DNA of 64,000 nucleotides, taken from contig DAYM01000004.1 in NCBI GenBank assembly GCA_002506905.1, positions 16,147-80,146 of the forward strand, given 5' to 3'. Under the pieces are notes generated by a model. That model worked only from the letters and a program-made list of their open reading frames with translations, was not told where the DNA came from and ran no database searches. The translations under genes were made by a program, and so were the position numbers. This document shows, piece by piece, positions 14,027 through 62,309 of the stretch. The first letter of the stretch is position 1; the number at the start of each line of letters is the position of its first letter. The stretch is from Methanomassiliicoccaceae archaeon UBA328 (lineage in GTDB: Archaea; Thermoplasmatota; Thermoplasmata; Methanomassiliicoccales; Methanomethylophilaceae).

Positions 14027-14059
14027 ACCCTTTAAATCAAACCTATTTTCTTTTTTGTA

Positions 14060-16862: not shown

Positions 16863-16967
16863 GATCAATTAACATTTGTGATCTTTGCGGTCTTTCATTC
16901 GAACAGTTTGTCGTAGGTCCTTCTCTGGAGCATGAATGCAGGCAATTGTATTCAAATAAATTATTTT

Positions 16968-17004
16968 ATAATTTTTAAGCTGTTTTCCTGCAGAAAATTA
17001 CAAT
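16968..17004. repeat. 37-nt direct repeat, copy 1
   Basis: ATAATTTTTAAGCTGTTTTCCTGCAGAAAATTACAAT. It matches 18453..18489 at 36 of 37 positions. A shared CAAATAAA lies 8-15 nt upstream of both copies. Confidence 0.9.
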
Positions 17005-17016
17005 TTCTATGTTATT

Positions 17017-17220
17017 TTATCGGCTCTTCGGTGTGGTCTGCGCGCGAGGCATTATCATTTCTTCACATGCCACTTTCTGCGTGTTCAGCCGATTGTATTG
17101 CTGAAAGCAGAATAGGTTTCCCGGAAACTTTTCGGGAATGTTTTTTTTGCATACCTTTGCTTCAAAATTCATTCCTTCCGGAGCGAGGCATCTTCCTTCG
17201 GCGATCTCGATATCTTTCAT
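17017..17220 (-). CDS. Hypothetical small protein
   Basis: 67 codons from MKDIEIAEGRCLAPEGMNFEAKVCKK. No recognisable family. Confidence 0.2.
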   Translation of the reverse strand: MKDIEIAEGRCLAPEGMNFEAKVCKKNIPEKFPGNLFCFQQYNRLNTQKVACEEMIMPRAQTTPKSR

Positions 17221-17445
17221 TGTTCCAATAATTGTGTTGGTGAATACAAAAACCCGATTTTGAATATAATGATTGTATTTCTGAATATAATCGCGAGATG
17301 ATAGGAACAAACAGTTTTCGATCTCCGAAAATCTTCACAGGATCTCATCACGCGGATCCAAACACGGGCCCGTCGATGAATGAAAAGAAAGTCGGTCCGG
17401 GGAGCAGGCAGAATGTATTAATATCATCAAAGGGTACCACACCCG

Positions 17446-18363
17446 ATGATATCCAGTACGCTGATGTGGGTCATATTCGGCATAATAGTCGTTGTGCTCT
17501 TGGCCCTCGATCTCGGAGTTTTCAATCGCGGTTCAAAACACATTCCCGTGAAGAAAGCTCTGGAGATGACGGCGGTCTGGATAACGATCGCTCTTCTTTT
17601 TGCGGTTTTCATCTATTATGAGATGGGTGCGGAGAAGACCACGGAATATCTTGCGGCGTATGTCGTCGAGAAGGCGATGAGTGTCGATAACATCTTCGTT
17701 TTCATCGTGATCTTCTCATATTTCTCGATCCCGGACGAATATCAGCACGAAGCACTGTTCTACGGTGTGGTCGGAGCGATAGTATTCCGTGCGATATTCA
17801 TCTTCGTCGGAGCGGAATTGCTGAATACCTTCGATTTCGTGATGTACATCTTCGGAATAATATTACTGATAATGGCAATCAAGACGACCTTCGGCAAGAA
17901 GGATGACAGCAAGGAAAGTTTTGCCGTCAGATTAAGCCATCACATACGGTCGTCGCCGGAATTGGACGGTACCAAATTATTCACCGTGAGGAACGGCGTC
18001 AGAATGGCAACGCCTCTGTTCATATGCATCATCGTCATCGAACTTTCCGATATCATATTCGCATTCGATTCCATTCCGGCCTGTCTTTCGATATCGACGG
18101 ATATGTTCATCGTGTACACGTCCAACATCTTTGCTATCATGGGACTGAGGTCGCTGTATTTCGCGCTGAGAGGAATGATGGAGTCCCTGAAGTACATGAA
18201 ATACGGTCTCGGAGTGATCCTTGCATTCGTGGGAATAAAGATGCTGGTATCCGACTTCTACCACGTGTCCGTAGGAATGTCCCTGGCGTTCATCTTGGCA
18301 GTGCTGGCCATTACGATCCTTGCATCGTATCTGGTCAGGCCGAAGGCTACGGAGACATCCTGA
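17446..18363 (+). CDS. TerC/Alx family integral membrane protein
   Basis: 305 aa, polytopic. VVLLALDLGVFN and YVVEKAMSVDNIFVFIVIFSYFSIP are typical TerC-family motifs. Confidence 0.85.
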   Translation: MISSTLMWVIFGIIVVVLLALDLGVFNRGSKHIPVKKALEMTAVWITIALLFAVFIYYEMGAEKTTEYLAAYVVEKAMSVDNIFVFIVIFSYFSIPDEYQHEALFYGVVGAIVFRAIFIFVGAELLNTFDFVMYIFGIILLIMAIKTTFGKKDDSKESFAVRLSHHIRSSPELDGTKLFTVRNGVRMATPLFICIIVIELSDIIFAFDSIPACLSISTDMFIVYTSNIFAIMGLRSLYFALRGMMESLKYMKYGLGVILAFVGIKMLVSDFYHVSVGMSLAFILAVLAITILASYLVRPKATETS

Positions 18364-18452
18364 CCGGATGAATAGTATGCGCCGGCCGGTGACGCATTTC
18401 ATGCGGACCTTCGGAGCATGAATACAGCGCCCGTACCCAGACAAATAAAATT

Positions 18453-18489
18453 ACAATTTTTAAGCTGTTTTCCTGCAGAAAATTACAAT
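18453..18489. repeat. 37-nt direct repeat, copy 2
   Basis: ACAATTTTTAAGCTGTTTTCCTGCAGAAAATTACAAT. In this copy an 11-nt AAAATTACAAT flanks both sides of the core. Confidence 0.9.
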
Positions 18490-18534
18490 AATAAAGTTAA
18501 TTTCCGACGGCCTTCCGACCGCCGGTGTATTGTT

Positions 18535-19857
18535 TCAAAGGTCCGATGAGGGAAGAGTGCCGTTCAGATACTGTTCGTATCCGTACAGGTCGAGCAGTCC
18601 GTGTCCGGAGAGGTTGAACACGATGTTCTTCGCCTCGCCGGTCTTCTTGCACTCGAGTGCCTTGTCGATCGCGGCCTTCAGTGCGTGGCAGGATTCCGGT
18701 GCGGGTATGATGCCCTCGGTGCGTGCCATGAGTACTCCTGCTGCGAACGTCTCTGTCTGATCGTACGAGACGGCCTTCACGAATCCCTGGTCATATGCCG
18801 CGGAGACCAAAGGTGCCATTCCGTGGTACCTGAGTCCTCCAGCGTGGATGGACGGCGGGATGTAGCTCGAACCGAGGGTGTACATCATCAGGAGAGGCGT
18901 CATTCCCGCGGTGTCTCCGTAGTCGTACCTGAAGTCGCCTTCGGTGAGCGAAGGTGCCGCTTTGGGTTCTACGGCGATGATCTCGCAGTCTGATTTCTTT
19001 CCTCTGAGCCTGTCTCCGATGAACGGGAAGGTGAATCCTCCGAAGTTGGAGCCTCCTCCCACGCAGGCGATGAGACAATCGGGTTCGATCTCTCCGGCCT
19101 CCAGCTGTTTCTGGAGTTCGAGACCGATGACGGTCTGGTGGAGCATGACGTGGTTCATGACGCTTCCGAGCGCGTAGCATGTTCCGTCATCCTTCGTTGC
19201 CATCTCGCATGCTTCGCTGATCGCTATTCCGAGGGATCCGGATGTGTCCGGGTGCTCTTTGAGTACCTTCTTTCCGAATTCGGTGTACTCGCTGGGCGAA
19301 GCGTATACCGTTCCGCCGTAGGTGTTGATGATTGTCGTCCTCAGGGGCTTTGCTTCGAAACTGCCCTTGACCATGAATATGGTGGATTTGATATCATAGA
19401 GGTTGGAGACCATTGCGAGGGCGGTTCCCCACTGTCCCGCACCGGTCTCGGTGGTGAGTGTGTGGATACCTGCCTCTGCGTTGTAATACGCCTGTGCCAG
19501 CGCGGTGTTTCCCTTGTGGCTTCCGAGCGGCGAGAGGTCCTCTCTTTTGAAGTAGATCCTGGCGGGCGTCTTGAGATATTTCTCGAGGCGGAATGCCCTT
19601 TGGAGAGGCGACGGGCGGTTGAGTGCTATGAGTCCGTCCCTGACCTCTTCGGGAATGTCTATGTATCTTTCTGTGGACGCTTCCTGCTGGATGATCGTCT
19701 TGCAGAAGATCGGTGCGAAGTCTTCTGGCTTCGCGGGTTCTTTTGTCACCGGGTTTAGCGGGGGCTGGAGTTTGGGGATATCTGCGGCCAGGTTGTACCA
19801 GCGTTTGGGGATATCTTCGATGTCCAGACTGATTCTTGCGTTCTCTGGGAATGCCAT
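18535..19857 (-). CDS. trpB: TrpB2-type tryptophan synthase beta-like PLP enzyme
   Basis: 440 aa. Long N-terminal extension ([13 protein letters not shown]), [16 protein letters not shown] containing the PLP lysine, and VGGGSNFGG. Confidence 0.85.
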
Positions 19858-22007: not shown

Positions 22008-23753
22008 TCATGCCTTCTTGGCACCCTTCCTGACAACGAAGAAGTACGCCAGAACTCCGATGAGTGCCACGGCGATCACCGCAACGACGATGATGACTGT
22101 CGTGTTTCCGCCGTCGGAAGGCGTCGGTGTCGGCGTGGGTGTCGAGGTGATCACGTATCCGGAGATGCCTTCCTCGACCTCCTTCAGGGTGTAGCCGTGT
22201 CCGGCGATGTCCGATGCGGATGTGAGAAGGACGCCGTCCGTGTCATAGAACGGATACTCGAAAGCATCCGTTCCGATGGACGTTACCGTGGCCGGAATGA
22301 TGACATTCTCGAGCTTGGAACAATCGACGAACATGTTGTCTCCGATCCTGGTCAGGCTGCTGCCGAGATTTGCGGTCTCGAGGGAGTAGCAGCGTTCGAA
22401 GACGCCCGCTCCCGCAGTGTTCAGGCTGTCGGGGAAATTGACGCTCTCCAGACGGTAACAGTTGGAGAAGGCCTGTTCTCCCAGGTTGTTCATTCCTTCC
22501 GAAAGGCTCAGATCGGCAAGGGTGAAGCAGTTGACGAATGCGGCAACGCCGACGGTACTGACATTCTTGGGTATGTCCACGGAAGTGAGCGATACGCACC
22601 CGGAGAAAGCTGCCTGTCCGATCGATGTGACGCTTTCGGGTATCGTAATGCTCTTGAGCAGAACGCAGTCGACGAAGGCTCCGTCGCCGATCGATGTAAT
22701 GGTATCCGGCAGGGTGACCGACTGCACTCTGGTGTTCTGGAATGCACCCATGCTGATGCCGGTGACACCCTTTCCGACCGAAACGGATGTTATGGAGTAT
22801 CCGTAATTATACTTCTCGGATATCCACTTGGCATCGCCCATATCGCCGTTCCCGGTGATGGTGAGTATGTTGTTCTCAAGGGTCCAGGTGGCTTCTCCCG
22901 TTGTGCCGCTGCCGTTGTAGTAGTCTATTCCGCTTGTGTTGTACTCGTCTTCCGAAAGGCCGAAACCGTCTGATCCCAGAAGTGTCGCCTCTTTCGTGAC
23001 GGCGTCGGCGAATTCGAAATAGATGCTGTTCCCGTATTCGGTGTAACCGTTGGCGAAGCAGCCGATATCGGATCCGATGTTGCTGCCGTTCGCAATTGCG
23101 GTTATCCAGGCATCGTTGCCCGTGACCGTTATCTTCGCAAGGCTTACGCAGTGTCCGAAAGCGGTATCGCCTATGGCGGTGACCGTATCGGGGATGGTGA
23201 AGGATGTCAGAGAGCGGCACCCGTCGAATGTGCTGATCCCGATGGATGTGATATTTCCTTCGAACGTTACGCCGATGAGTGAAAGGCAATTTTTGAACAG
23301 GGAGTCCGGGAGTTCGGTCACTTCTTTTCCGAGTGTCATCGTCTGAAGGGATCCGCAGTCCTGGAAGGCGCCGGACCCGAGTTCTGTCACGGACTCGGAG
23401 ACGATCACGGAAGTAAGTGCCAATCATCCTCTGAACGCCTGGCTGCCGATGGAGGTGACATTGTTCCCGATGATCACGGATGTGAGCGTCAGGCAGTCTG
23501 CGAAGGCCGCGTTCCTGACGGCGGTGACGTTGTACAATGTGCCGTCGATGGTGACGTTATCTTTCACGGCAGCGCCCCCATCGGAATCGAGCTCGTCCAT
23601 GTCGTATCCTACGGCAGTTACGCTGCTTCCGTCGATCGCGTACAATACGCCGTCCTCTTCGAGATCGTATTTCACCATTGCATCGGACCCGTCGACGGCG
23701 AAGACGGCGGCGGCAATGGTCCCTGTGGCTTCGGTCGCATTGGGACAGAAAGA
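22008..23753 (-). pseudogene. BspA-like leucine-rich-repeat surface protein, 5'-truncated, with an in-frame TGA
   Basis: At least 12 repeats of the type AF..C..L..v.ip.sVt.IG, then a TPTPTPTPS linker and a C-terminal TM anchor. The TGA at 23424..23426 lies in frame between AFRG and LALTSVIV. No signal peptide or start codon at the 5' end. Confidence 0.8.
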
Positions 23754-24201
23754 TTACGGAAAAGCTCTCGTCGGGTTTTCGTATACCGTCCGTATATGCG
23801 TAATCATTTCCGTTGTGCTATCCATCCTGGTGATACTGTTTGCCGATCCCCTGTCATATGTGTTCACATATTCTGAGGGAATGGAGTATCTTCAGTCGGA
23901 ATTTGTCAAGGTCATTCGCATCTACGGATTCGTGATCCTGTTTCTGGTAGTGATCGATGTATGCTCCAGTATTCTACAGACCCTTCAATTCTCACAATTG
24001 GCTGTTGTTACGATGTTCTTCAGAGAGAGTCTTTTCATCCTGTTCTATTGGATCTCCACATTTTTCTCCATGGACGCTGTATATTGGTCATTGCTGATCG
24101 CTGAAGGAATAGGTGCGGTGATCATGGCGGTGTTCGCAATATATGCGGTAAGAAAGAGATCGTACGATTACCCGAGAACTCCCAAGCCTATTGCGACCTG
24201 A
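23707..24201 (+). pseudogene. C-terminal fragment (about 160 aa) of a MATE efflux transporter
   Basis: AAAMVPVASVALGQKDYGKAL... aligns with SQAMVPVCAASYGARRVDRI (about residue 300) of the intact MATE gene at 49674..51062. The first ~300 codons are missing. Confidence 0.7.
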
Positions 24202-24283
24202 TGTGGATGTCGGAGTCATCGGATGACATGATCGGCCTTTCGACGGGATTAGGTTTTTCTAATCTCTCTTCCTTTGTCTCAAT

Positions 24284-24898
24284 ATGGTCAACGGTCAATA
24301 CAGATGCCCTTCCGGCGACGAAGGGAAACAGGTCATATCCTCTATGAACGAACATCATGCTCCGCTCACGGATTGGGCCCTTTCCAATCTTCCCGATATC
24401 GATCCGAAATGGATATTGGATATCGGCTGCGGAGGCGGTATGCTCATCGGAAAGCTCGCCGAGAGGTATCCGGAGGCGTTGATCGACGGCGTCGACATCT
24501 CTGCGGAATCCGTGAAGGCCACCGCGGACAACAATCCCCGCATTGCGGCCGAAGGCAGGCTCCACGTGCTCAAAGCATCGGTGTCCGACCTTCCATACGA
24601 CAAAGGGACGTTCGACCTTGTGACGGCAGTAGAGACGTATTTCTTCTGGCCGAACCCCGAATTGGATATATTCTCTGCCGCGGAGAGACTGGTTCCCGGA
24701 GGCGTGATGATGATCGCTTCCGAAGCGTATCCCGACCCGGAATTCGACGAGGTCAATAATAGGCATTCCGAAGAGTATGGAATGAAACTGCTTCCGAACG
24801 AGAGGTTGCAGGATATAATGTCCGGAGCGGGACTGAGGACGGAGTTCTTCACCGTGAAGGAGAAGAATTGGGTCGTGTTCATCGGAAAGAAGGAGTGA
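24284..24898 (+). CDS. Class I SAM-dependent methyltransferase
   Basis: 204 aa. Motif I ILDIGCGGGML and post-I GVDIS. Confidence 0.8.
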   Translation: MVNGQYRCPSGDEGKQVISSMNEHHAPLTDWALSNLPDIDPKWILDIGCGGGMLIGKLAERYPEALIDGVDISAESVKATADNNPRIAAEGRLHVLKASVSDLPYDKGTFDLVTAVETYFFWPNPELDIFSAAERLVPGGVMMIASEAYPDPEFDEVNNRHSEEYGMKLLPNERLQDIMSGAGLRTEFFTVKEKNWVVFIGKKE

Positions 24899-24901
24899 TC
24901 C

Positions 24902-25435
24902 ATGGTTGCGGATCCGTCGTACGTGCCGAAGGACGGACGTTCTGTCATTTACTTTGCGGGAGGGTGCTTCTGGGGAGTGGAGAAGGCGTTCTCGGTCATG
25001 CGCGGTGTGACGGATACCGAATGCGGTTACGCGAACGGGTTTGACAGACTCATCCCGGATTACATGCTGGTTTGTTCCGGGAAGTACGGTTATTTGGAAG
25101 CCGTGAGGGTGGAGTACGATCCGAAGATCATCGGATCGGACCTTCTGCTGGCGGCGTTCTTCATGATCATCGATCCCACGGACCGGGACAGACAGGGGAA
25201 CGATATCGGGCACCAGTACAACACGGGGATCTACTGGACGGACGAGAGTACCGGCAGGTCCGTGAAAGCGTTCACGGAACAGGAGAGGAAGAAGTACAAG
25301 GTGTTCTACACCGAGATCGGTCCGCTGGAGAGGTTCACCGTCGCGGAACCGGAGCACCAGGATTATCTCGACAGGAATCCCGGAGGGTACTGTCATGTTC
25401 CGGAGAGGACGATCAGGGTGCTGAGGATGTTCTGA
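24902..25435 (+). CDS. msrA: Peptide methionine (S)-S-oxide reductase MsrA
   Basis: 177 aa. Contains YFAGGCFWGVEKAF and GHQY.TGIYW. Confidence 0.9.
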   Translation: MVADPSYVPKDGRSVIYFAGGCFWGVEKAFSVMRGVTDTECGYANGFDRLIPDYMLVCSGKYGYLEAVRVEYDPKIIGSDLLLAAFFMIIDPTDRDRQGNDIGHQYNTGIYWTDESTGRSVKAFTEQERKKYKVFYTEIGPLERFTVAEPEHQDYLDRNPGGYCHVPERTIRVLRMF

Positions 25436-25555
25436 GATCAGATCGTTTTATTCTTCTGCAAATTTGTCAACGGCCGGAGTTCCTGCGCTGTACTCCGATC
25501 ACCAAAAGATCGGTGATCTGCGGATTTTGATAATCTTTGAAACGATCGTAGTATC

Positions 25556-25792
25556 ATGGATTTGGAGTATAATCTGAAGAAATTGGATGACTGGTATGAG
25601 AATGTTCAGGATGATGTTTTCTCAATATCGATCGGACCTGGAAATCTGATGGAGATCATCTTGTATAATTCCCGTAATCTGAGAGTGCAGGATAAACTGG
25701 AATTGTTTGGTTCCCTGGATGATTTTCTGTGTTTGGTTGCAGAGTTTGCGGAGATAAGAATAGAGAAATTCTTCCGGGAAGAGGATCAGTGA
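25556..25792 (+). CDS. Hypothetical acidic protein
   Basis: 78-aa ORF at the left edge of the AT-rich island. No recognisable family. Confidence 0.3.
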   Translation: MDLEYNLKKLDDWYENVQDDVFSISIGPGNLMEIILYNSRNLRVQDKLELFGSLDDFLCLVAEFAEIRIEKFFREEDQ

Positions 25793-25820
25793 ATAATAGA
25801 TCCTGAGACGATCGGATCTC

Positions 25821-25976
25821 ATGGATCAGTATGTTCACGTAGAATGTCCAAAGTGCGGAGGGTATGTTCTTGCTGCAGATATGAAATATTGCGAGTCTTC
25901 GGAGGAGGAGAGATTCGAGTATTATGTTTGCGGGTGCGGGTGTAGGTTCGGAGTAAGATATTTTGTTGACGGGTGA
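25821..25976 (+). CDS. Small zinc-ribbon protein (51 aa; below the ORF-track size cutoff)
   Basis: MDQYVHVECPKCGGYVLAADMKYCESSEEERFEYYVCGCGCRFGVRYFVDG. CPKC plus CGCGC gives a four-Cys ribbon. Confidence 0.35.
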   Translation: MDQYVHVECPKCGGYVLAADMKYCESSEEERFEYYVCGCGCRFGVRYFVDG

Positions 25977-26190
25977 GGAATAATGCTCACTTGGTACGAA
26001 AAAACTTGCATAGTTTTATGATCTGATAGTGTGTATTTAGGTATGCCGTAAAACAGGTCGTGCGATCATCGTAGTTGATAGTTATTCCTGGACAGTTGAA
26101 GACAACAACAATGCAGTAAAGAGGACAGATCTGTCTGTTTTCAAAAATCACGGTACGGCCATTCCGGTAGATGTTAGGTTTTTCTTCGGA

Positions 26191-26874
26191 GTGGACGATT
26201 TCAAAAAGGGCCAACACAGATCAGTAGTTTTGGTTTTTGATGGAAATAGATATCAGGCTAAATTGGAAAAGACCAATTCAACCGCAAATCAGGCCAGATT
26301 GATGTGGAATTTGGACCTTTCTCGTGCATTCAATAACAAGTATCCGAATGTTCTGAAAACCGGGTTATATCCTGAATTAAAGATTATGAAGATCAACGAT
26401 TCGGAATATCATCTGGAGTTCAATAACAAACTTACGCTTCATGAAGTAATAGAACGTGATCTTCAGACGGAAGATAACAATACGGTGATTTCCGGAGGAG
26501 TGGAAGGGGAGAAAAAGCTCGTTATCGGAACCAGATATGAGCGTAACAGCAAAAACCGTGAGGATGCCATCGAGATTCATGGATTAAAGTGTGCCGTATG
26601 CGGTTTTGATTTCGGTGAAGCATATGGTGATGCAGGAAAGGATTACATCGAAGTTCACCATCTCGTTCCTCTTTCAGAAAAAGGAGCTCCTCAGAAGGTC
26701 AATCCGGAAACCGATCTGGTGTGTGTCTGTTCCAATTGTCATAGAATGATACACAGAAGGAAAGGCCAGGTTTATTCAGTCGAAGAGCTGAGAGAGAAGA
26801 TGATCGAGTGCGGCAGCATTCAGGAGATTGATGGTCAACTAATTTTATCGAGGAAGGCCGTCTTAAGAAAGTGA
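26191..26874 (+). CDS. HNH endonuclease with uncharacterised N-terminal domain (probable 5' frameshift)
   Basis: HNH core HGLKCAVCGF..IEVHHLVPLSEKG..VCSNCHRMIH. The frame is open for 50 more codons upstream (KTGRAIIVVDSYSWTVEDNNNAVKRTDLSVFKNHGTAIPVDVRFFFG) with no start codon. An ATG at 26043 is out of frame by one base. Confidence 0.75.
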   Translation: MDDFKKGQHRSVVLVFDGNRYQAKLEKTNSTANQARLMWNLDLSRAFNNKYPNVLKTGLYPELKIMKINDSEYHLEFNNKLTLHEVIERDLQTEDNNTVISGGVEGEKKLVIGTRYERNSKNREDAIEIHGLKCAVCGFDFGEAYGDAGKDYIEVHHLVPLSEKGAPQKVNPETDLVCVCSNCHRMIHRRKGQVYSVEELREKMIECGSIQEIDGQLILSRKAVLRK

Positions 26875-26920
26875 GCCAGTCGATAGTTAAAGCACACTGA
26901 GCACGACATCTGATACAGCA

Positions 26921-28568
26921 TCATATCTGCATAATTGGCCATTTTTCTTTTACACGATTCAACAATTCATCTTGACGATTTTCTATGTCTTTTATAGTCC
27001 ATTCATCTAGGTTCGCAAGAGCTTTTGTATCCGGGATATCTGATTTCAAATACTCTTTTTTCTTAACATTAAATGTTGAATTTTTAATGCGTTCGTTCAG
27101 GGTATGGTGGAGTAACGTCATATTCCCGATTCTGCGACAATATTCTTCGTGTTCGTCTTCTTCAATATTCCATTCACCTATTGATAAAGGCATGATGTGT
27201 TCTAGATGAACTGTTTGACCATTGGGAGATACAATGGTCTCCGAGTGTTCATGTTCATACAGGGATCTTAGAATGATTTTAGCTTCCTTATCTTTGGGAT
27301 CATATGTGGCGAATTTGCTTTCTATCTCTGGATCTTTCGCAGTGAGTTTTATTATCCGTTCAACTACTGATTTGGTGTTCAGTTCATCATTGGTGTCTCT
27401 AATGCAATCTTTGAGAATTCAGTTTCATTTTTATTTGCTACATAGCCCATAATTGCTTGATTTCTTACGATAAGACACTCAATCGCATTCAATATCTTGG
27501 ATATGTCCTCTTTTGATGCATTTTTTGCGCAGGCTGCCAATATTATGGGGTAAAAAGATGTGGCACCTAGGCCCCCTGTAGTTTTTAGGCATTCTACTGA
27601 TTTCTGATCAATGAAATCATTTGTTCTTGGATATACAAGGTATAGGTAATTTTGATATGAATTGAACATGTGCTTTAGAAACTCATCCGCGTCGTCACCT
27701 AATTCATAGGATATCGCTCTAAACAGTGTTTTGCTTCTGACGAATTCGTGGGATGCATTCCAATAGTACCTAAAAAACTTGGAAATATCGGCGCTCTTAA
27801 TCGAGGAAAATTCACTCGTCATTGTCATCCACTTTTCCTTTACAGAGTCAATATTGCGGGCATTTCTAAAAAAGTAATTTTTCAGCAGGTCCTTCACTTC
27901 TAATTCTTTGCCACGAGAATTGAGTGTTTCAAATAGTATGCAAGCTTGTCTGAAATTGTCTGTTTCCACGACTGAAACCTTGAATCTTTTTACAAACGCG
28001 CTCCTATATTTTCCAACAATTTGACTTTGTCATCAAAAGAAAGTCCTTCTAGCAATTCTGATATGTACTTGAATATGTAAGCATAGGCTGCTGCAATTCT
28101 TTTGTTGGATTTATTACTGGCTTTAATGCTGTGATCTCCATCAATTATGTAATCTTTGAAGAAGACTTTGTTGGATCCGCCCATTGTTAAATTGGCACGC
28201 AAATCGCCGTTTTCTTGTTTTTCACCAACACATTCACGAAGAGCGTACGTCATTTCCCAGAGGTTTTCTGCTTTGGAATTTTCTTCCTTTAGTTTTTCTG
28301 CGATATCCCATATTACTTTTAGATAAATCACTGAAGTGCACAACCTTTGTTGTCCATCTATTATGTAGCGCGTATTGTTTCCAAAGTGAGTTTTGATTTG
28401 TCCATACAGATATTCTTCATCATTGCTGTTGATAAAGGAGTGCAAATCGCTAAGAAAGTCAGCAACCTCTTCATTTGTCCATGAATAGTCTCTTTGATAA
28501 TCAGGGACAACAATTTTTTTCTCCAAAAGATCTTTCATTGGTTCTGTTGCCCATTTCATCTCGCTCAT
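26921..28568 (-). pseudogene. GmrSD-like DUF262/DUF1524 nuclease, split by two frameshifts
   Basis: N-terminal DUF262 (VPDYQRDYSW, IIDGQQRLCT) in 27990..28568; middle part (ILFETLNSRGKELEVKDLLKNYFF) in 27379..27969; C-terminal His-Me finger (VHLEHIMPLS..IGNMTLL..N..N) in a third frame down to 26921. Frame changes near 27975 and 27390. Confidence 0.8.
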
Positions 28569-28657
28569 GGTACCAAAGTGGCATGGTTCAAAAAGTAAAT
28601 AGATCTCTTGGAAAATAGTGTACACATTGTGCACTGTTCGGTAGTGTACCATTGCAG

Positions 28658-31627
28658 TTATTGAGCAATATACGTGAATAAGGAGTCATCAATTGTACAT
28701 CTAAGTTTCATTGGAATATTCACAACACTCTCTCCGCCGGTCTCCGATTCTTTCATCTTATCGACAATCGGATCAACCAATCCCATGTAGTAAAAGTCCG
28801 TTCCTTCTCCGTCTGCCTTCTTGACAAACAAAGGAATAACCATGCCGGTTTTCCTGTAATTTCTGATCGCTACAACTTCCGGGCTGTCCATCTTCACTCT
28901 CGAACGTGTGATCCAGCTGAAAGTGTTCCTGTCGATGAAACGGTCATCGTACTTCGTGGTCTCGCTGATATCTTCGTCTTTATTGTATGTAACGAAAATC
29001 GGACATGTGTTGTGCTTAATCCTGTAACCGTAGATCGTAGAATACTCGTTCTTATCCCAATTCAGGATTCTGCAGACGTCCGATCTGGAATATTTGGAAA
29101 ACAGAACAAATCCAGCTTCATCGCAATCGGAATATTCTTTCCTGTTGATCTCCAATCCGCATTTGATCACGTCTTCGAAATACGATTTGAACGGGAGATC
29201 CCGGAGGTACTCCGACAGAACCGGACTGAGCACAAGTTTGTTTTCTCTTTTTACAATCAGGTTTCTGTAAGGATATTTTTTCGCAGTCGCTTCCACAACG
29301 AATCCGCCGGTAAGAATGGAAACCGCAGACTCGATCGATTTCTTACTGTATCCTCTGGACAGCAGATCTTCGATTCTGATCTTCCCATTCCTGACCACCT
29401 CGTTCAGTATCACCAATTCTTCCGGTCTTTTTCCGTTCAGGAATTGTGTAGAGACAAATCTGAGAACTTTGATTTCGTCTTCGGACATCTTATCCGTTGC
29501 GATTTTCAGTTTGTTTCTGAAATCATACAGGCTTTCGGAGTAATCCACGACAACTCTGGGATCCAGCGATCCGTTCTCGTACAATTCGACCAAAGTCGGA
29601 TCCCTTCCCAATCTCACTTTCATGTTGCTGTACTCGTATTTCAGAGTAGCCAGCTTGGAAAGATTCGTTCTGTTGATGCAATCGTAGATCCTGTCTTTCG
29701 TGATCGTATCGAAGTTGACGCTGGAGCATCCGGGAACGATGCTGTTGCCGCTTATCAGATATCTGCGGGCGTTGTCTTTGTTGCAGGACCTGTCTCCGGA
29801 GAACGCAATTGGAATCAGGAAATTGTTGGTGTAATTTCCGATGAAGTCTATGATGACCACGTAGTCTTTGTTATTCGCCTTACGGAGGCCTCTTCCGAGC
29901 TGCTGAACGAACACGATGGCCGATTCCGTAGGTCTGAGCATGAGGATCTGATTGATGGCGGGAATGTCCACTCCTTCGTTGAAGATATTGACCGTTAGAA
30001 TATAGTCCAAACAATCGTCGCCGGTGTCCTTTTCAAGTCTTTCGACCGCAGCCTCTCTTTCGTCGGGAGTGTTGTTTGCGGAAAGTGCCAGAGTTCTCAA
30101 TCCTCTATCATTCATCTTATCGGAAAGAACTCTCGCTTCGTCTGTTCTGCTGCAGAAGATCAATCCCTTCACTCTGCCGCCGGTATGCGAGTAATAGTCG
30201 GCTTTGTCAAGGATGTGTTTGACACGTTCGTCGGATGTCAGCGTGTTGAATGATGTGTTGTCGTCCAGAGCCTTTCCGTTCACGGTGATATCGGAAATTC
30301 CGAAATAATGGAAGGGACAGAGCATATCCTGTTCCATAGCCTTCTGAAGTCTGATTTCGTATGCTATGGTGTGATCGAATAAAGCAAAAACATCTCCTCC
30401 GTCCATTCTCTCCGGAGTTGCGGTCATTCCGAGCATGAATTTCGGACGGAAATAGTCGATGATGCGTTTGTAGGAATCCGAGAATGCGTGATGGGCTTCA
30501 TCGCACACGATGTAATCGAAGTGATCTCTTTGGAAATGTTCCATCACTTCTTTTTTCGACATTGTCTGGATGGTTGAAAACAGCATATCCGCGTTGTAAT
30601 CCTTGCTGTTGCCGGACAGAATTCCGTATGTGAATTTTGACCCCAGGACTTTGCCGTAGCTGTTCTTTGCATCTTTCAGAATCTGTTCTCTGTGAACCAG
30701 AAACAGGACTTTTTTGGCACCGAATTCTCTGACGTCGAAAGCCGAAAGATAGGTTTTTCCCGTACCTGTAGCGGATATCAGAAGAGCTCTGTCTTTGCCG
30801 TCACGGTGTATTTTATCCAGATTGATCAGAGCCTCTTTCTGCATATCGTTGGGCTGGAGAAGATCGTATCCTTTTTCGGTGAAGATTTCCTTTGAACGTT
30901 CCATCCTGGCTCTTTTGTATCTCGGGATGTAATCATCGATCCATTCGTCGGTGAGAACGGTAGAATCCGACCACATTGTTTCGAATTCGGATATCGTATC
31001 TCTGAGGAGTTCTCCGTCGTCTAAAGAAGACAATTTCAGATTCCATTCTTTGTTGACTGCGAGAGCATCCGCGGTAAGATTGGAGCTTCCGATGATCATC
31101 GTGTCAACATCTTTTCCGTGGAAGATGTAGCCTTTTGTGTGGAAGCTGTCCTTCTCGTACATTCTGATTTCGAAATCGGTGTTTTTCAGCAGCCATTTCA
31201 GAGCGTTCGGATCGCTGAAATTCAGATAATCGGTTGTGATTATGCGTCCTTTGACCTGACGTTCTTTCAATTCTTCGAATTTCTGGAACAGTCCTGTGAT
31301 TCCGCCCATTGTTATGAATGCAACGGAGAAGTCGAAAGATTCGCATTTGTCCAGTTCGGAAACGATGGATGTGCTGACTTTGATCTTCTTTTCAAAATCG
31401 TTGTAGATCAGCTTTGGCCTGTATGATTCGTTTGATTCTTTGTCTTTATCGACTATTGCAGTAATGGCCGATTCAGACAGAATGTCCGCCAGAGAATCAT
31501 CAGGATTCATTGATTGGAAAGCTGCGGCATGGCTAATTAAGGTATCGGTGTTAGAACTAATTTGAATGATTATAGAGCCCATCTCGACTATTATGTTCAC
31601 TATTTGAATTTCTGAGTCTGTTTTCAA
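28658..31627 (-). CDS. SauUSI-like PLD nuclease / SF2 helicase / DUF3427 fusion (type IV restriction-like)
   Basis: PLD motif FHTKGYIFHGKDVDTMIIGSSNLT; helicase motifs SATGTGKTY, CDEAHH and QQLGRGLR; C-terminal DUF3427-like region (FSKYSRSDVCRILNWDKNEYSTIYGYRI). Start uncertain: ATG codons at 31582 and 31510 are more plausible than the TTG at 31627. Confidence 0.8.
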   Translation of the reverse strand: MKTDSEIQIVNIIVEMGSIIIQISSNTDTLISHAAAFQSMNPDDSLADILSESAITAIVDKDKESNESYRPKLIYNDFEKKIKVSTSIVSELDKCESFDFSVAFITMGGITGLFQKFEELKERQVKGRIITTDYLNFSDPNALKWLLKNTDFEIRMYEKDSFHTKGYIFHGKDVDTMIIGSSNLTADALAVNKEWNLKLSSLDDGELLRDTISEFETMWSDSTVLTDEWIDDYIPRYKRARMERSKEIFTEKGYDLLQPNDMQKEALINLDKIHRDGKDRALLISATGTGKTYLSAFDVREFGAKKVLFLVHREQILKDAKNSYGKVLGSKFTYGILSGNSKDYNADMLFSTIQTMSKKEVMEHFQRDHFDYIVCDEAHHAFSDSYKRIIDYFRPKFMLGMTATPERMDGGDVFALFDHTIAYEIRLQKAMEQDMLCPFHYFGISDITVNGKALDDNTSFNTLTSDERVKHILDKADYYSHTGGRVKGLIFCSRTDEARVLSDKMNDRGLRTLALSANNTPDEREAAVERLEKDTGDDCLDYILTVNIFNEGVDIPAINQILMLRPTESAIVFVQQLGRGLRKANNKDYVVIIDFIGNYTNNFLIPIAFSGDRSCNKDNARRYLISGNSIVPGCSSVNFDTITKDRIYDCINRTNLSKLATLKYEYSNMKVRLGRDPTLVELYENGSLDPRVVVDYSESLYDFRNKLKIATDKMSEDEIKVLRFVSTQFLNGKRPEELVILNEVVRNGKIRIEDLLSRGYSKKSIESAVSILTGGFVVEATAKKYPYRNLIVKRENKLVLSPVLSEYLRDLPFKSYFEDVIKCGLEINRKEYSDCDEAGFVLFSKYSRSDVCRILNWDKNEYSTIYGYRIKHNTCPIFVTYNKDEDISETTKYDDRFIDRNTFSWITRSRVKMDSPEVVAIRNYRKTGMVIPLFVKKADGEGTDFYYMGLVDPIVDKMKESETGGESVVNIPMKLRCTIDDSLFTYIAQ

Positions 31628-31689
31628 TTAGTTTATGTTTTTTAAGATAAATGCGCCCTAGTTATCATTAAATATACAGCTATTAATTA

Positions 31690-31714
31690 CATATTGGATG
31701 TTTAATCCAATATG
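31690..31714. promoter_or_regulatory. 10-5-10 perfect inverted repeat in the divergent intergenic region
   Basis: CATATTGGAT-gttta-ATCCAATATG, between the SauUSI-like gene and the ABC binding-protein gene. Confidence 0.3.
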
Positions 31715-31777
31715 CTTATTAACGAGTAGTCGAAACAAGAAAATTTTCGATGAAACTAATAAATACTGAGAGAAAAA

Positions 31778-33121
31778 ATGGATAAAAAAGTATCAGCCAT
31801 AATAGTAGTGGTGATTCTTCTCGCTGCAGGACTCACAGGCGCTATTTATGTTTTGAATAATAATAACAAAGAAACGTCAGTGAGTTATGCAGGAGACGTC
31901 AAGATCTACGGAAATGCAAATAATGACGATACTATCAGCAGTGCAGATATCGATGTATTGAATGATCTGATAGTTAATCAAAATTATACTGAAACCGACT
32001 ATCCCTACGCGGATGCTGACCAGGATGGAGAAATAACTGCTTCCGATGTCGAAGTCGTTCAGAATATAATCGATGGAAAGGAGACGATCATTTACTACGT
32101 CAATTATTTTGATTCAGTAAGGACGATTCACTATCCCATTACAGGAACGATCGGTACGAGCTTCTGACAGCAGGCAGAGCTTACAGTCATACTGGGAATT
32201 TGGGATAAGGTAGCTGCCGTCGATACAAGTACGCAGTCAAATGCATCTAATGCAGAGAAATATCCAGGTATCGAAAATCTTTTTGATCTCGGAAGCAGGG
32301 ATGCAATGACCGCAGAAGCAATTCTGGCTAGCGGAATATCTGCATTGATCTGTCATGGAAATGCTTCCTCATCTACTGAGGATTTGATTACAGACTTTGA
32401 AGAAGCAGGTAAGACAATAGATATTATTTGTCTTGGATGGGAAGGAATGAATTGCCTTTCAACTGCTTTGATGATGGGAATATTCTTCCAGGTGGAAGAT
32501 GCGGCACATGAATATGTTGATTGGTGTAATGGTATTCTTAACAAACTGAAAACAGCCATTGACACTCTCGATGAAGACGATGTAGCTACGGTCATACTTC
32601 CGTTGATGTACACAAAGCAGTCTTCGAATATCAGGATCGAGTGTGAAGGTACTGGTTCATATTCATTGGTCAGTCAGATTGCAAATGTTGTTGATCTTGA
32701 AGATGCTACATATGAGACTAAGAACAGAGCTTACAGAACGGCAGAATGGTTCCTCTCTGAAAATGAAAATGGTCTTTTTGATTATATTCTGATTATGGAG
32801 GAAGGAAGCGGTCTGGGTTCTACGAATGAATCATATAATGCGCGTTTCGAGGCGTCCATTGAATATTTTGTTCAGTGTCCCGCATATGAGCAGGGGAGAA
32901 TTGGAGGAACAACATACGGATTCGGCGGTTTCTCTGGATTCTCACTATTGACATATGTGGCATTTGTGCTGTACCCGCAACTCTTTACCGAGGATCAGGG
33001 TCTGGAAGACAGGCAGTATTGGTTCGATAATTTCACCAACCAGACGGTTGATGTGAACAACATGGCCTGGCGTTACACCGGAACAGCATATGAAGAGTAT
33101 GTTGATAGGATGGACAGTTGA
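31778..33121 (+). pseudogene. FecB/BtuF-type ABC substrate-binding protein with N-terminal anchor and dockerin-like module; in-frame TGA
   Basis: ORFs 31778..32167 and 32306..33121 share one frame, and the only stop between them is the TGA at 32165..32167 (GTSF-TGA-QQAELTVILGIWDKVAAVD). N-terminal TM helix followed by two dockerin-like repeats. Confidence 0.75.
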
Positions 33122-33164: not shown

Positions 33165-34297
33165 ATGACAGAAAATAAGAGCGAATCTTATAGCGAGTGT
33201 GTCGTTGATTCCATAGCGTTGTGGAAGGACGATTCCGAGAAAGCCAAGGAAGAGCGCGTCAGTGCTAATCGTGAATATAAAAGAAGTACTGCTGTAAAGC
33301 TGTCATTCATTGTTATCTGCGGTTTGATTGCCATAGTTGTTATGGGAGTATCTCTGACCGCTGGGCAGTATGATATTGGTTTTTTTGAGTCGTTTGAGAT
33401 TGTTTATCAGCATATCACTGGCAATATTCAGGATGTGACCAAGGACTATGTGATCTGGGATCTGCGTATGCCCAGGATAATGACTGGAGTTCTTACCGGA
33501 GCTGCCCTGGCGGTTGCAGGTGCGACCATGCAGAGCGTTTTAAAGAATCCGCTGGCAGATCCATATACTACAGGTATATCGTCCGGAGCGGGTTTCGGTG
33601 CAACACTTGCGATATGATAGGAGTATCATTTGCAAACGGCGGATACATGGTCGTGGCCAATGCGTTTATTTTCTCATTAGTGCCAACGGGTGTAATCATA
33701 CTTGTATCGAAGATGAAGGGTGCATCGCCGACGACTATGATCATGGCGGGAATCGCAGTCATGTACATTTTTAATGCATGTACATCGTTGATCAAAATGT
33801 ACGCAAATCCCGATGCCTTATCCAGTCTTTTCCAGTGGACAGTAGGTTCTCTGGACGGTACCAGATGGGAAGATGTAATGGTCATGATGCCATTTGTTAT
33901 CGTCGGAATAATTGCGATACAGCTGTTATCCAGACAACTTAATGTTTTGATGCCGGGGGATGAAAGTGCAAAGATGCTTGGTGTCGATGCAGACAAATTG
34001 CGTATGATTACCATCATTCTGATCGCTCTGATCTCTGCAACTGTAGTAAGTTTCACAGGTCTGATCGGATTTATCTGACTTGTGTGTCCGCATATCGTAA
34101 GGTTGTTCATTGGATCTGATAACCGTTATTTGATCCCGGCATCTTTGGCATTCGGTGTGGCATTGTTACTTTTCGCCGATCTGGTCGGCCGTACAATCAT
34201 TGTGCCCAGTGTATTGCCTGTAGGTATCGTAACTGCATTCATTGGAGGTCCATTGTTCTTGTACCTGATCGTGAAGCAGAAAAAGAGTGCGTGGTGA
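33165..34297 (+). pseudogene. FecCD/BtuC-family ABC permease, with a frameshift and an in-frame TGA
   Basis: Three pieces: ..NPLADPYTTGISSGAGFGATLAI / MIGVSF.. (1-nt shift at about 33615), then ..GLIGFI-TGA-LVCPHIVRLFIG (TGA at 34076..34078, same frame). Confidence 0.85.
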
Positions 34298-41469: not shown

Positions 41470-41817
41470 TCAATGGGAGATCGGTTCGTAATCCAATTCG
41501 GAACACGCATCAGTAGCTTCCAACTTGAATATCACGGGCCTGAGTCCGTCGTTGCAGCTGCATATCGCCACACCCGGTTTCCTGATCTAATCTCCGAAGT
41601 AGAACGTCTCCTTTCCGGCGCCGTGCGCAAGGGCGAACACGTATTGGTAGATCGCTTTCCAGGCCTCGTCGCAGAATCCTTCCGGTTTGGCGTAATCCGC
41701 GTAGAACACATCTCCTTCCCTTAGCATGGGGCATTTCCCGAGGCCTTCGGCACCGTATTCCTCGGCGAGGTCCTCGTTGAACATCGTCCGGATGACCGTT
41801 ATCTTGACCTTTCTCAT
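41470..41817 (-). CDS. TIGR04076-family protein with an in-frame TAG at codon 77
   Basis: MRKVKITVIRTMFNEDLAEEYGAEGLGKCPMLREGDVFYADYAKPEGFCDEAWKAIYQYVFALAHGAGKETFYFGD-TAG-IRKPGVAICSCNDGLRPVIFKLEATDACSELDYEPISH-TGA. TAG at 41587..41589. Confidence 0.65.
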
Positions 41818-41863
41818 GAATAAAGAATGGAGGTCGTTGTTAATCAATATATAGAAATGTATC

Positions 41864-41879
41864 GGGGGCCGAAGCCCCC
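41864..41879 (-). terminator. GC hairpin 3' of surface-protein paralogue 1
   Basis: GGGGGC-cgaa-GCCCCC, 15 nt after the stop codon. Confidence 0.35.
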
Positions 41880-41893
41880 TGTGAAAGCGGTTT

Positions 41894-42847
41894 TCATTCA
41901 TCCAGATGGAATATGACGCCCATGTCTGAGTACTCGCCGTCAAGATATTCGGCGTAACAGAATCCGATAAGGACCTTGTCATGGAACATAGCGGCCGCAT
42001 TCATGATCAGGGATCTTTCTCCGTAATACAGGCCCATGCCGAAGCGTTCCATCATCGTGACGGTGACGGTCTCTTCCTTGTACGTTATCTCTTTCGTGCC
42101 CGTATCTTCCATATCTATGATGGCACCGGATTCGATAAAGAAGTAGAACACGGAGTAAGCATCGTCGGATGTTCCGATCAGGAGCGTTCCGTCGTGTTCG
42201 CCGAGGACCTCGATCTCTATGGAGTCCTCCCCGTTGGAGAAAGTACCGAGTGACAGGCCGACAAGTCCGGACGGGACGTATTCCTCATGTGCACGCAGAT
42301 CATAGGATACAAGGGTGTATACAGTGACCTTATTCTCTCCGAAATAGATCATCCTGTACAGCGCATTGTTGCACTGGCCGGAATCGTCCTGTCCCACAAC
42401 ATATTCGAAATTTTCGTTCGTATAGATGTCCACCGTGACCTTTCCGTCGCAGGTCTTTATCTTCTCTGTTGCCGTCAGTTCGCCGGAATAGGAAAATGCG
42501 TTGCCTTTGAGGATCGTTTCTTTCATGGTCATTCCCGAGGAAAGATTGAATTGGTTGTTCTCCAGGCTCCAATATGTGTCGCTGTTCTCCGATAGGACCT
42601 CTATGTGATATTCGTCGGTCTCGTAGAGGACGGGCACATCATCTTGGTACACGTAGTTCTCGACCATGTAATCCGCAGTGGTGCCTATTCCGGGGTTTTC
42701 GAAAGTGGCTCCGTCTTCGGAGGGGTTGTCATTCGATTGTTTGATGAGCGCTCCGACGGTTGCGGAGCCCACTGCCAAAAGAATGACCAGAATGATCGCG
42801 GCAAGGGCATTCAGTGATGCTTTATTATCGCCGGACAATGTCTTCAT
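41894..42847 (-). CDS. Membrane-anchored extracytoplasmic protein, tandem paralogue 1 of 3
   Basis: 317 aa. N-terminal TM anchor, EDGATFENPGIGT and TCDGKVTVDIY motifs shared with the next two genes. Confidence 0.6.
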   Translation of the reverse strand: MKTLSGDNKASLNALAAIILVILLAVGSATVGALIKQSNDNPSEDGATFENPGIGTTADYMVENYVYQDDVPVLYETDEYHIEVLSENSDTYWSLENNQFNLSSGMTMKETILKGNAFSYSGELTATEKIKTCDGKVTVDIYTNENFEYVVGQDDSGQCNNALYRMIYFGENKVTVYTLVSYDLRAHEEYVPSGLVGLSLGTFSNGEDSIEIEVLGEHDGTLLIGTSDDAYSVFYFFIESGAIIDMEDTGTKEITYKEETVTVTMMERFGMGLYYGERSLIMNAAAMFHDKVLIGFCYAEYLDGEYSDMGVIFHLDE

Positions 42848-60394: not shown

Positions 60395-61249
60395 TTATGC
60401 GTGGTTGACAGCGATATCGGGAACAGATATCGGTTCTTCTTTCCGTACGTTGTCCACAGGTTCGTCGTCATAGGCTTTGGAGAGGAATGTAGGATAGTAT
60501 GCGATGTTCAGCAATCCGGTCTTGGGATGGCGGCTTACTGCTGCCTTGACATTGTAGATCTCTTGGATCATATCTTCCGTGATGACCTTTTCGGGCGTAC
60601 CTTCCATGATAATGCGGCCGTCCTTGATAACGTAAAGCCTGTCGCAGTACTGTGCAGCAAGATTCAGATCGTGCATGGCGCAAAGGGCCGTACAATGAAG
60701 ACTTTTGACGATATCCAAGACCTCTAACTGATATTCGATATCAAGGTGGTTAGTCGGTTCGTCCAATACCAGACAGGGCGTTTGCTGTGCAAGTGCCCGT
60801 GCAAGGATGATGCGCTGCTGCTCTCCTCCCGAAAGCGATGAGAATGCCCTGTCTGCAAATTCCAGCATATTGACCTTTTTAAGGGCATTTCTGACGATCT
60901 CGCGATCTTCTTCGTTATCGGTCTCCATTGCCTTTTTATGAGGGGTTCTGCCCATCATAACGACGTCTTCGACCCTGAATTCGAAGTTGTAGTAGTTATG
61001 TTGGGTGACAACTGCCATTTTCAAAGCACTCTCGCGGAGATGCATAACATCCAACGGTATGTCGTCTATCAGAATCTCCCCGGAGTCCCTTTTCATCACG
61101 CGGTAAATGGATTTCAGCAACGTGGATTTGCCGCTTCCGTTCGGTCCCAAAAGACCTACGAACTCGCCGTCATTCACATGTATGGTGGCTTCATTCACTA
61201 TGCGTTTGGTGGGAACCGAAACGTCTACTTCTTTTGTTACTATGTCCAT
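60395..61249 (-). CDS. FecE/BtuD-type ABC ATPase
   Basis: 284 aa. Walker A GPNGSGKST, signature LSGGEQQR, Walker B LVLDEPTN. Confidence 0.85.
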   Translation of the reverse strand: MDIVTKEVDVSVPTKRIVNEATIHVNDGEFVGLLGPNGSGKSTLLKSIYRVMKRDSGEILIDDIPLDVMHLRESALKMAVVTQHNYYNFEFRVEDVVMMGRTPHKKAMETDNEEDREIVRNALKKVNMLEFADRAFSSLSGGEQQRIILARALAQQTPCLVLDEPTNHLDIEYQLEVLDIVKSLHCTALCAMHDLNLAAQYCDRLYVIKDGRIIMEGTPEKVITEDMIQEIYNVKAAVSRHPKTGLLNIAYYPTFLSKAYDDEPVDNVRKEEPISVPDIAVNHA

Positions 61250-62309
61250 CAGCTACCAGCTCCGAAACTGTAAGATTTCTTGATCATAATGTATGCGAAC
61301 ACGGGTGCACCGCAGATGGCGGTAATGATACCGATCGGTATCTCCGAGACGGTTAACGAGCGCGCAAAGATGTCGGCGACCATCATGAATATCGCTCCCA
61401 GGAGGATCGATATCGGATAGAGTTTCCAATGGTTGGTCCCAACCAGTGCACGGCCTATATGCGGTATGATCAGACCGACGAATCCGATCAGTCCGCAGTT
61501 GCATACCAAAATGGCTACCATGAACGCGGTGATCAGAATGTAGGCCTTTCTGAGGGTCGAAAGATTGATCCCCAGCGTGGTTGCGGTATCGTCTCCCAAC
61601 ATCATTGCGTTAAGGTTACGCAGCTGTGTCAGGAAGAACACGATACAGATGACAAGGGGGACCGCGCACATGACAACGGTATCGAAACCAGTCGTGCTCA
61701 GGGAACCCATAAGCCAGAATGTAAGGTCCCTCATCTGGGTGGCGTTAGGTGCCAGATATACGATGAGATTTGAGAAAGCACCGCATAATGATGCGATAAT
61801 TACTCCGGAAAGGACCAATTTCGTCGATGTGATCTTTCCTCCCACCGCAGATAACGTGAATACGGCTATCGATGCTAGATCGCACCGATGAATGCAAATG
61901 CTTCCACACCGAAAGACGCAAAGATCGTTCCCGCAAGCACGGATGAACCGAGAAGGATCGCGAACGTTGCACCCAACGATGCTCCTGACGATATACCCAA
62001 TATGTACGGATTGGCAAGAGGATTCTGGACCATTGCCTGTATGACAACTCCCACAAGTGCCAATCCGGCGCCGACCACAAGTCCGAGCATTCCGCGGGGA
62101 GCATAGAGCTGCCAAACGATCGCTACGGTAGCAGGACGTATATCAGAAATATCGCCGTATCCGAATATCTTGTTCAATAGTATACGCACAACTTCATCGA
62201 ACGGAACAGACACTGCACCGGTAAACGTCGAATAGGCTAGAACGACGATCATGACCAATACGAGGAGAATGATCAGTCCTACTGTTGATATGTTCCCTAG
62301 TTTTTTCAT
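61249..62309 (-). pseudogene. FecCD/BtuC-family ABC permease with one frameshift
   Basis: N-terminal piece ..NPLANPYILGISSGASLGATFAILLG..AFAFIGAI stops at TAG. The frame shifted by one base continues LASIAVFTLSAVGGK..GLIGFVGLIIPHIGRAL.. to the end. The shift is near 61880. Confidence 0.85.

Follow-up and report, generated by a model that had tools for sequence, protein, structure and literature searches.

In the methylamine methyltransferases MtmB, MtbB and MttB an in-frame TAG is decoded by tRNA(Pyl), is conserved in all organisms that use pyrrolysine (Pyl) and specifies a catalytic residue. In-frame TAGs outside the methyltransferases have already been documented, and in Methanomethylophilus-type archaea they were validated by proteomics. 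Thg1, the tRNA-His guanylyltransferase of Methanosarcina acetivorans, carries Pyl at a poorly conserved position where the TAG is fixed, reportedly as a result of neutral evolution; the available account of it gives this Pyl no catalytic role and an origin by drift. For 'Ca. Methanomethylophilus alvus' 16 genes with an in-frame amber codon were predicted, and it was pointed out that an amber newly arisen in frame persists as a stable mutation where tRNA(Pyl) suppresses constitutively (Borrel 2014, PMC4153887). Of the predicted Pyl proteins that M. alvi expressed, 12 of 15 proved to contain Pyl, no amino acid other than Pyl was found at TAG, and most non-methyltransferase Pyl sites are singletons that are probably neutral (Kivenson 2024, bioRxiv 10.1101/2024.09.30.615893). 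A PYLIS is not required in these archaea. In M. acetivorans pyl genes are substrate-regulated, UAG keeps its stop reading and an internal UAG gives a long Pyl form plus a short terminated form (Shalvarjian 2025, PMC12626013). The Methanomethylophilaceae, finally, also include genomes that lack Pyl (PMC12626013).

Here we describe an in-frame TAG in a TIGR04076 gene from a 64-kb stretch of archaeal DNA, hereafter the window, by which we mean the whole stretch that was analysed. It resembles MtmB, MtbB and MttB in the in-frame TAG as such; theirs is universal among Pyl organisms, whereas the one described here is absent from the 80 other species examined and from half of the conspecific strains. 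As in the M. alvus Pyl proteins, the product is not a methyltransferase, both TAG-split halves match the same homologue and relatives have homologues without TAG; that study concerned a different species and other genes, and with one genome per species it gave no view of within-species polymorphism (PMC4153887). A close likeness is with the Category 1 genes and singleton Pyl proteins that Kivenson described from archaea with Genetic Code 34. Category 1 is defined by an internal TAG flanked on either side by more than 30% identity to known proteins, with an extension longer than 15 aa, in a genome that uses TAG very little and in which reading through a TAG creates no large out-of-frame overlaps. 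The TIGR04076 gene shows about 80% identity across the TAG and an extension of 38 aa, and none of the approximately 64 genes in the roughly 70 kb sampled ends in TAG. A nearly TAG-free genome, lack of a PYLIS and restriction of the site to one lineage are likewise shared. The Category 1 cases come from the same archaeal family (Methanomethylophilus and relatives) and were validated by proteomics; unlike in those cases, the TAG is unfixed in the window species and takes the place of a residue that the entire protein family conserves. The likeness to Thg1 lies in a TAG, here a probable Pyl codon, in a non-methylamine protein, and the difference in that the TIGR04076 gene has its TAG where homologues conserve Trp, as an allele that has not yet become fixed. 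The RdmS sensor kinase of M. acetivorans also has an internal UAG in a non-essential gene and is made in long Pyl and short forms (PMC12626013); experiments showed this for a genome in which about 5% of stops are TAG, whereas the window species seems nearer 0-2% as judged from its DNA. By analogy with RdmS, a dual long and short outcome is likely for the TIGR04076 TAG as well.

Gene layout and predicted protein

On the minus strand of the window an ORF of 76 codons ends in TAG and continues in frame for 38 sense codons up to a TGA (Table 1). This arrangement had been described in the initial annotation and was confirmed from the minus-strand sequence. The same annotation took the segment after the TAG for the conserved C-terminal part of the family, with which both the profile match and the codon-usage score agree. 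When the TAG is rendered as X, the read-through protein reaches 97.1 bits with the NCBIfam profile TIGR04076 (curated cutoff 33 bits) and covers profile positions 1-90 of 91, compared with 61.4 bits and positions 1-60 for the 76-aa truncated product alone. The 38 codons after the TAG add 36 bits and complete positions 61-90, and it takes read-through of the TAG to cover the full profile with its C-terminal CxC segment. A Pfam search with the protein gave no match. In frame, the codon-usage score is +0.285 per codon for the N-terminal and +0.105 for the C-terminal segment, as opposed to -0.55 to -0.82 for the other two frames. The read-through length of 115 aa agrees with that of homologues (114-118 aa in most), relative to which the TAG at codon 77 is a premature stop under code 11. 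The 38 residues downstream of the TAG are 100% identical to those of the TGG alleles P0001 and P0454. Upstream of the gene, the TATA-like stretch is possibly a promoter of its own, and the hairpin may mark a transcript boundary.

Table 1. Coordinates of the TIGR04076 gene and of further features in the window.
Feature	Position	Strand	Remarks
N-terminal 76 codons of the TIGR04076 gene	41590..41817	-	ATG at 41817..41815; profile positions 1-60 of 91
In-frame TAG, codon 77	41587..41589	-	middle base 41588 A/G polymorphic (coding strand) among natural strains
38 codons after the TAG, IRKPGVAICSCNDGLRPVIFKLEATDACSELDYEPISH	41473..41586	-	conserved C-terminal third of the TIGR04076 family
TGA terminator of the full 115-codon reading	41470..41472	-	read from sequence
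A/T-rich TATA-box-like stretch TTTCTATATATT	41846..41857	-	about 30-40 nt upstream of the ATG; found by eye
GC hairpin GGGGGC-TTCG-GCCCCC	41864..41879	-	between the stop of the upstream paralogue and the TATA-like stretch
317-aa gene directly upstream	41894..42847	-	segregating disruptions
Three tandem paralogues of 317, 312 and 320 aa	41894..45069	-	no Pfam match
Glutamate synthase large subunit (GOGAT)	2083..6495	+	N-terminal class-II amidotransferase domain over at least three frames (2083-2499, 2496-2705, ~2705-3090); in-frame TAA at 2843..2845
FecCD-type ABC permease gene, split	61249..62309	-	TAG ends the frameshifted ORF 61875..62309
FecCD-type ABC permease gene, split	33165..34077	+	150+154 aa in the window, 154+60+90 aa in other strains
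Two adjacent nitrogenase-component-1-like (Oxidored_nitro) ORFs	14060..15853	-	415 and 181 aa
BspA-type leucine-rich-repeat protein	22008..23423	-	471 aa
Low-GC stretch	~24000..32000		43% GC, 50.5% overall
HNH endonuclease	26191..26874		in the low-GC stretch
PLD-helicase-DUF3427 protein	28658..31627		in the low-GC stretch

An AF2 model of the protein (pLDDT 86, pTM 0.79) assigns residue 77 to the loop of lowest confidence, which is flanked by helix 50-64 and strand 83-87. Two beta strands, 83-87 and 94-105, are predicted after the TAG, and so are located Cys86 and Cys88, which are invariant across the family alignment. The family has four invariant cysteines in all, which suggest a metal site. 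Stopping at codon 77 would cost the protein both strands and two of these cysteines, whereas reading through would place a bulky Pyl at the highly conserved Trp77, which may cripple the protein. No sequence or fold relative was found in the PDB and no functional literature was found on the family.

Stop codon usage and lineage

A gene call self-trained on codon usage gave 54 ORFs in the window, of which 41 end in TGA, 12 in TAA and one in TAG. The single TAG end is that of the frameshifted FecCD permease, precisely the exception that the initial annotation had made when it stated that TAG never ends a gene here. Matches were found for 28 of the 30 gene calls that were checked against Pfam, and the Pfam-supported genes include thermosome, fibrillarin, S15/S13N, Kae1, DnaK/DnaJ/GrpE, GS-III and GOGAT. 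Eleven further genes of the same species, located outside the window or in strain-specific insertions, all end in TGA or TAA. Taken over the window and other DNA of the species (about 70 kb sampled), TAG terminates none of approximately 64 credible genes. Out of frame, the window contains 692 TAG, 900 TAA and 2397 TGA trinucleotides; TAG is thus not rare there, which shows that its depletion is specific to terminators.

A naive longest-ORF call yielded six ORFs ending in TAG which, the frameshifted permease excepted, were low-complexity antisense shadows of better-scoring, Pfam-supported genes and were rejected. When ORFs were called again with TAG as a sense codon, two candidates with an internal TAG appeared; both were spurious N-terminal extensions with negative coding scores, and no other credible internal TAG was found in the window.

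TAG accounts for 1.6% of stops in M. alvus (PMC4153887), for a median of 4.1% in Pyl-using Methanomethylophilaceae and for 13.5-22% in genomes that lack Pyl (PMC12626013). The probability of finding no TAG among 64 genes is 0.36 at a share of 1.6%, 0.07 at 4.1%, 9e-5 at 13.5% and 1e-7 at 22%, hence the observation is more than 700 times likelier at 4.1% than at 13.5-22%. Absence of TAG gene ends is a hallmark of constitutive tRNA(Pyl) charging, so that Pyl is most likely inserted at the UAG of codon 77. TAG is probably read as Pyl in the window lineage, and the species would then carry an active pylTSBCD set.

As to the lineage, the proposed origin in Methanomassiliicoccales is supported by neighbouring proteins, and by exact and near-exact copies of window proteins, annotated as Candidatus Methanomethylophilaceae archaeon and by the presence of thermosome, fibrillarin and Kae1 in the window; the organism is a methanogen of guts and fermenters. 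By thermosome, the closest other lineage shares 89-90% identity; Methanoplasma sp., Mx-03 and DOK are at about 85%.

Codon 77 in homologues and origin of the gene

The best 120 protein matches are all full-length, with 75-98% identity, and identity of about 80% to hundreds of homologues extends across the TAG. Every homologue inspected has Trp in the motif GD-W-IRKPGV, and Trp occupies the column of codon 77 in 95 of 105 representatives of 50%-identity clusters, down to 35% identity. When a single genome was scanned for each GTDB species, codon 77 was TGG at all 80 loci from other species; the window's own genome is absent from this alignment scan, the TAG probably splitting its tblastn match. 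Conservation of TAG at the same position was therefore seen in none of the 80 other species, and the approximately 20 conspecific contigs described below have TGG too. A Trp at about this position had been stated for homologues in the initial annotation, correctly as the alignments and the TGG codons show.

Homologues with 75-84% identity occur in Bacteroides, Synergistaceae, Ruminococcus, Oscillospiraceae, Victivallis, Spirochaetaceae and Methanocorpusculum. The relatives in this range that were fetched as loci (L031-L110) represent Bacteroidota, Clostridia, Synergistota, Victivallales, Spirochaetota, Gastranaerophilales and Methanocorpusculum, and come from animal guts. Such unusually high identity across phyla points to frequent horizontal transfer. 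Judging from these comparisons TIGR04076 is a promiscuously transferred gut gene, of which the archaeal copy almost certainly came in by horizontal transfer. A conserved gene neighbourhood was not found across the 80 loci, ABC exporters with 34-43% identity adjoining the gene in about ten of them.

TAG/TGG polymorphism among strains

The TAG occurs on at least 22 contigs and TGG on about 20 contigs of one and the same species (>99.5% identity). The 76-aa product recurs without change on at least 22 contigs (29 index blocks) that stem from independent projects, and eight fetched loci (L002-L009) are identical to the window over all 348 nt, TAG included. An additional protein variant of the TAG allele, P0456, has D16N. 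On the TGG side, P0454 equals the window protein with W77 and is found on 19 contigs; it is annotated in two NCBI MAGs (MFA6804396.1 and MFA6951486.1, one of which is GCA_041669645.1), where it adjoins the same ABC transporter genes as the window copy. P0001, with W77 plus F72Y, is encoded on one further contig. Over 12-20 kb the TAG and TGG contigs are 99.59-99.99% identical to the window and therefore belong to one species.

At bases 165/215/230 of the gene, the TAG haplotype reads G/T/A (10 sequences; window, L002-L009). Three TGG haplotypes were distinguished, TGG-A with A/T/G (9 sequences), TGG-B with G/T/G (one sequence, L121) and TGG-C with A/A/G (one sequence, L001); the TAG haplotype is one step from that of L121. 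Polarisation of the synonymous site 165 with outgroups was uninformative. Neighbour-joining of 3.7 and 7.7 kb flanks places the TGG carriers (L001, L120-L129) in one clade and the TAG carriers (window, L002-L009) in the remaining, deeper lineages. On average, TAG carriers differ from one another by 0.31% and TGG carriers by 0.15%, with 0.46-0.50% divergence between the groups. Recombination is shown by allele sharing at other sites, and in 7.6 kb the TAG/TGG site is the sole fixed difference between the two strain groups. The TAG allele arose once and persisted while its lineage diversified; it is no accident of one strain.

Apart from the TAG, no damage to the ORF is seen in the 10 TAG haplotypes, which have no substitution in the gene where 2.45 are expected from the flanks (P ~0.09); the lineage is young and the comparison has little power, so that the absence of substitutions is suggestive, not significant. 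The initial annotation had named two signs of a plain pseudogene, TGG in close relatives and relaxed constraint over the downstream 38 codons. The former was found, both in conspecific strains and in 80 of 80 other species; the latter was not observed, within the little power of zero against 2.45 changes.

Pyrrolysine machinery

pylT, pylS and pylBCD, to which the initial annotation had pointed, were not found for the window species in the window, among the PylS lineages or in a metagenome scan. In the 64-kb window neither ARAGORN nor Rfam detects pylT, and no pyl or methylamine methyltransferase genes are present. The homology search for PylRS was made with the M. alvus sequence, which matches P0147 at 100%. 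No PylS was found near the MFA680 and MFA695 accessions by NCBI proximity, and a scan of JGI metagenomes yielded no contig from samples 3300061281, 3300062814 and 3300064082. Of five PylS lineages (P0423, P0205, P0183, P0481, P0266) none shares a sample with the window species. The nearest lead is the fermenter PylS group (P0266, L181, L202), which derives from the same three study series as the window species (ERZ7240xx, PRJNA260163 and ERZ272830xx), from different samples. Tetranucleotide and GC comparison of PylS loci with the window species did not discriminate, a BLASTN comparison between every PylS locus and the whole DNA known from the species found one match only, of 58 nt at 88%, and the adjacent transposases show 33% identity.

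In all five Methanomethylophilaceae PylS lineages sampled the gene order is mtmB(TAG-split)-pylS-pylB-pylC-pylD (L013-L030, L111-L119, L130-L139, L222-L231). A RamA-like (RACo) gene usually follows pylD at the fetched loci, and mtmB is split by code-11 gene callers every time, into ORFs of about 201 and 220-240 aa.

A PYLIS-like stem-loop was not detected in the 120 nt from the TAG, where the MFE of -30.8 kcal/mol hardly differs from the mean of shuffled sequences, -30.86 (z = 0.02).

Neighbouring genes and other features of the window

The 317-aa gene directly upstream carries several segregating disruptions (window, L001-L009, L120-L129). Codon 9 is changed from AAA to TAA in many strains of both clades, L009 has TAA at codon 44, and most strains of the TGG clade (L122-L128) have lost 1 nt at nt 736. 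Because of these, gene callers report 317, 292, 257 or 228+72 aa. The three tandem paralogues to which it belongs have an N-terminal hydrophobic segment followed by a common DDGATFE-x-(F/P)G-x-G motif; near the 80 bacterial TIGR04076 loci no homologue of them was found.

Other genes are broken as well. The in-frame TAA of GOGAT lies inside the conserved GEINT..GN-N-WM motif and the remaining ~3.4 kb are intact; the broken amidotransferase domain reflects either domain decay or assembly errors. Both FecCD-type permease genes are split, and the 181-aa Oxidored_nitro ORF, which matches profile positions 223-352 only, may be a fragment. The region is accessory and decaying, and loss of function is evidently tolerated in it.

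Two TAG strains have an IS insertion with a 488-aa DDE_Tnp_1 transposase (L002/L003 ~16600..18615), and the TGG strain L122 has an island with Vsr, a DNA cytosine methylase and a MutH-like protein (12085..14871); the two share an insertion spot, beyond window position ~35220. The low-GC stretch, which is scored poorly by the host codon model, is probably a foreign island of the defence type. BspA-type leucine-rich-repeat proteins, of which the window encodes one, are a class often tied to host association.

Discussion

The reading we favour, with a probability of roughly 60%, is a neutral or mildly harmful G-to-A change in a dispensable acquired gene, which results in a Trp77-to-Pyl missense, possibly with some truncated product. 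A single G-to-A transition turned the Trp77 codon TGG into TAG, and at the resulting UAG the ribosome would insert Pyl at least part of the time. The outcome would be a full-length 115-aa protein with Pyl in place of Trp77; release-factor competition may give some 76-aa truncated product, and a special mRNA signal would play no part. We infer both the insertion of Pyl at codon 77 and the rough neutrality of the change, which most likely reflects neutral or mildly harmful drift and not a functionally selected Pyl site. Since disruptions are tolerated nearby, a mildly or fully disabling change in the TIGR04076 gene could drift to high frequency. Moreover, G-to-A in TGG gives TAG or TGA with equal prior probability, hence the TAG alone is no evidence of selection.

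The initial annotation had left the choice between a Pyl or read-through site and a recent mutation. A recent TGG-to-TAG mutation is borne out by the TGG that about 20 contigs of conspecific strains, more than 99.5% identical, have at codon 77, and by TGG in 80 of 80 other species. A Pyl site that is conserved and functionally dedicated finds no support. In a TAG-free Pyl decoder the two alternatives are not exclusive; the published singleton Pyl sites are believed to stem from recent mutations to TAG (PMC4153887; bioRxiv 10.1101/2024.09.30.615893).

The same mutation could have made a plain pseudogene, in which the TAG terminates, the Pyl machinery having been lost or silenced or the release factor winning at codon 77. 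TAG strains would then make only a non-functional 76-aa fragment that lacks two of the four invariant cysteines, and the downstream codons would look intact only as the lesion is young. We take this possibility, the main rival, seriously and think it rather unlikely. TGG in conspecific strains and in all other species, the strong conservation of Trp77 and the accessory nature of a horizontally acquired gene that is 75-84% identical to genes of gut bacteria from several phyla are all in keeping with it, as are the adjacent paralogue with its segregating TAA nonsense and frameshift alleles and the degradation of other genes in the window. The searches run did not find pyl genes for the species, Pyl-free Methanomethylophilaceae exist and UAG retains its stop reading in M. 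acetivorans (PMC12626013). Zero TAG ends in approximately 64 credible genes are, however, hard to square with TAG as an ordinary stop; in addition, the 10 TAG haplotypes have no secondary lesions though they span 0.31% divergence, and every detectable predicted Pyl peptide in M. alvi contained Pyl. An error in the data could be suspected, the source being a MAG and the difference a single base, yet an artefact of sequencing or assembly at 41588 is practically ruled out: different projects and assemblers independently arrived at the identical TAG on at least 22 contigs, and it correlates perfectly with the clade structure of flanking SNPs.

Selection for the TAG, either since Pyl77 usefully alters activity or since expression becomes conditional on the supply of Pyl-tRNA or methylamine, appears improbable. 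The allele has a frequency of roughly 50% and is carried by the more diverse lineage, no other difference between the groups is fixed across 7.6 kb in spite of recombination, and pyl genes are substrate-regulated in M. acetivorans, all of which would suit a selected site or switch. Clade structure plus drift explain the pattern equally well, however; the TAG has a single origin without parallel events and is conserved in none of 80 other species, and neither a consistent gene neighbourhood nor a Pfam family, PDB fold relative or functional literature was found for the protein. Maintenance of the approximately 50:50 polymorphism itself by selection, with full-length protein made only where Pyl-tRNA is abundant (methylamine-rich conditions) or with Pyl77 as a new property, is very improbable; if true, the amber codon would be a natural Pyl-dependent translational switch.

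With the Trp77-to-Pyl change as preferred reading, the locus is an ordinary example of a known phenomenon and involves no new recoding signal. TIGR04076 would be one more family among well over a thousand predicted cases, and for annotation the lesson is that code-11 pipelines report its gene as a 76-aa fragment. Its distinctive feature is a TAG caught while still polymorphic, at a conserved Trp. Near-isogenic wild strains with TGG or TAG at this position, both alleles being common, amount to a natural experiment on a point where opinions differ, "all TAG = Pyl" (Code 34) being one view and "ambiguous amber" the other. Comparing the two strain types could help to gauge how completely UAG is read as Pyl, and could show how far the proteome tolerates Pyl at a conserved position.
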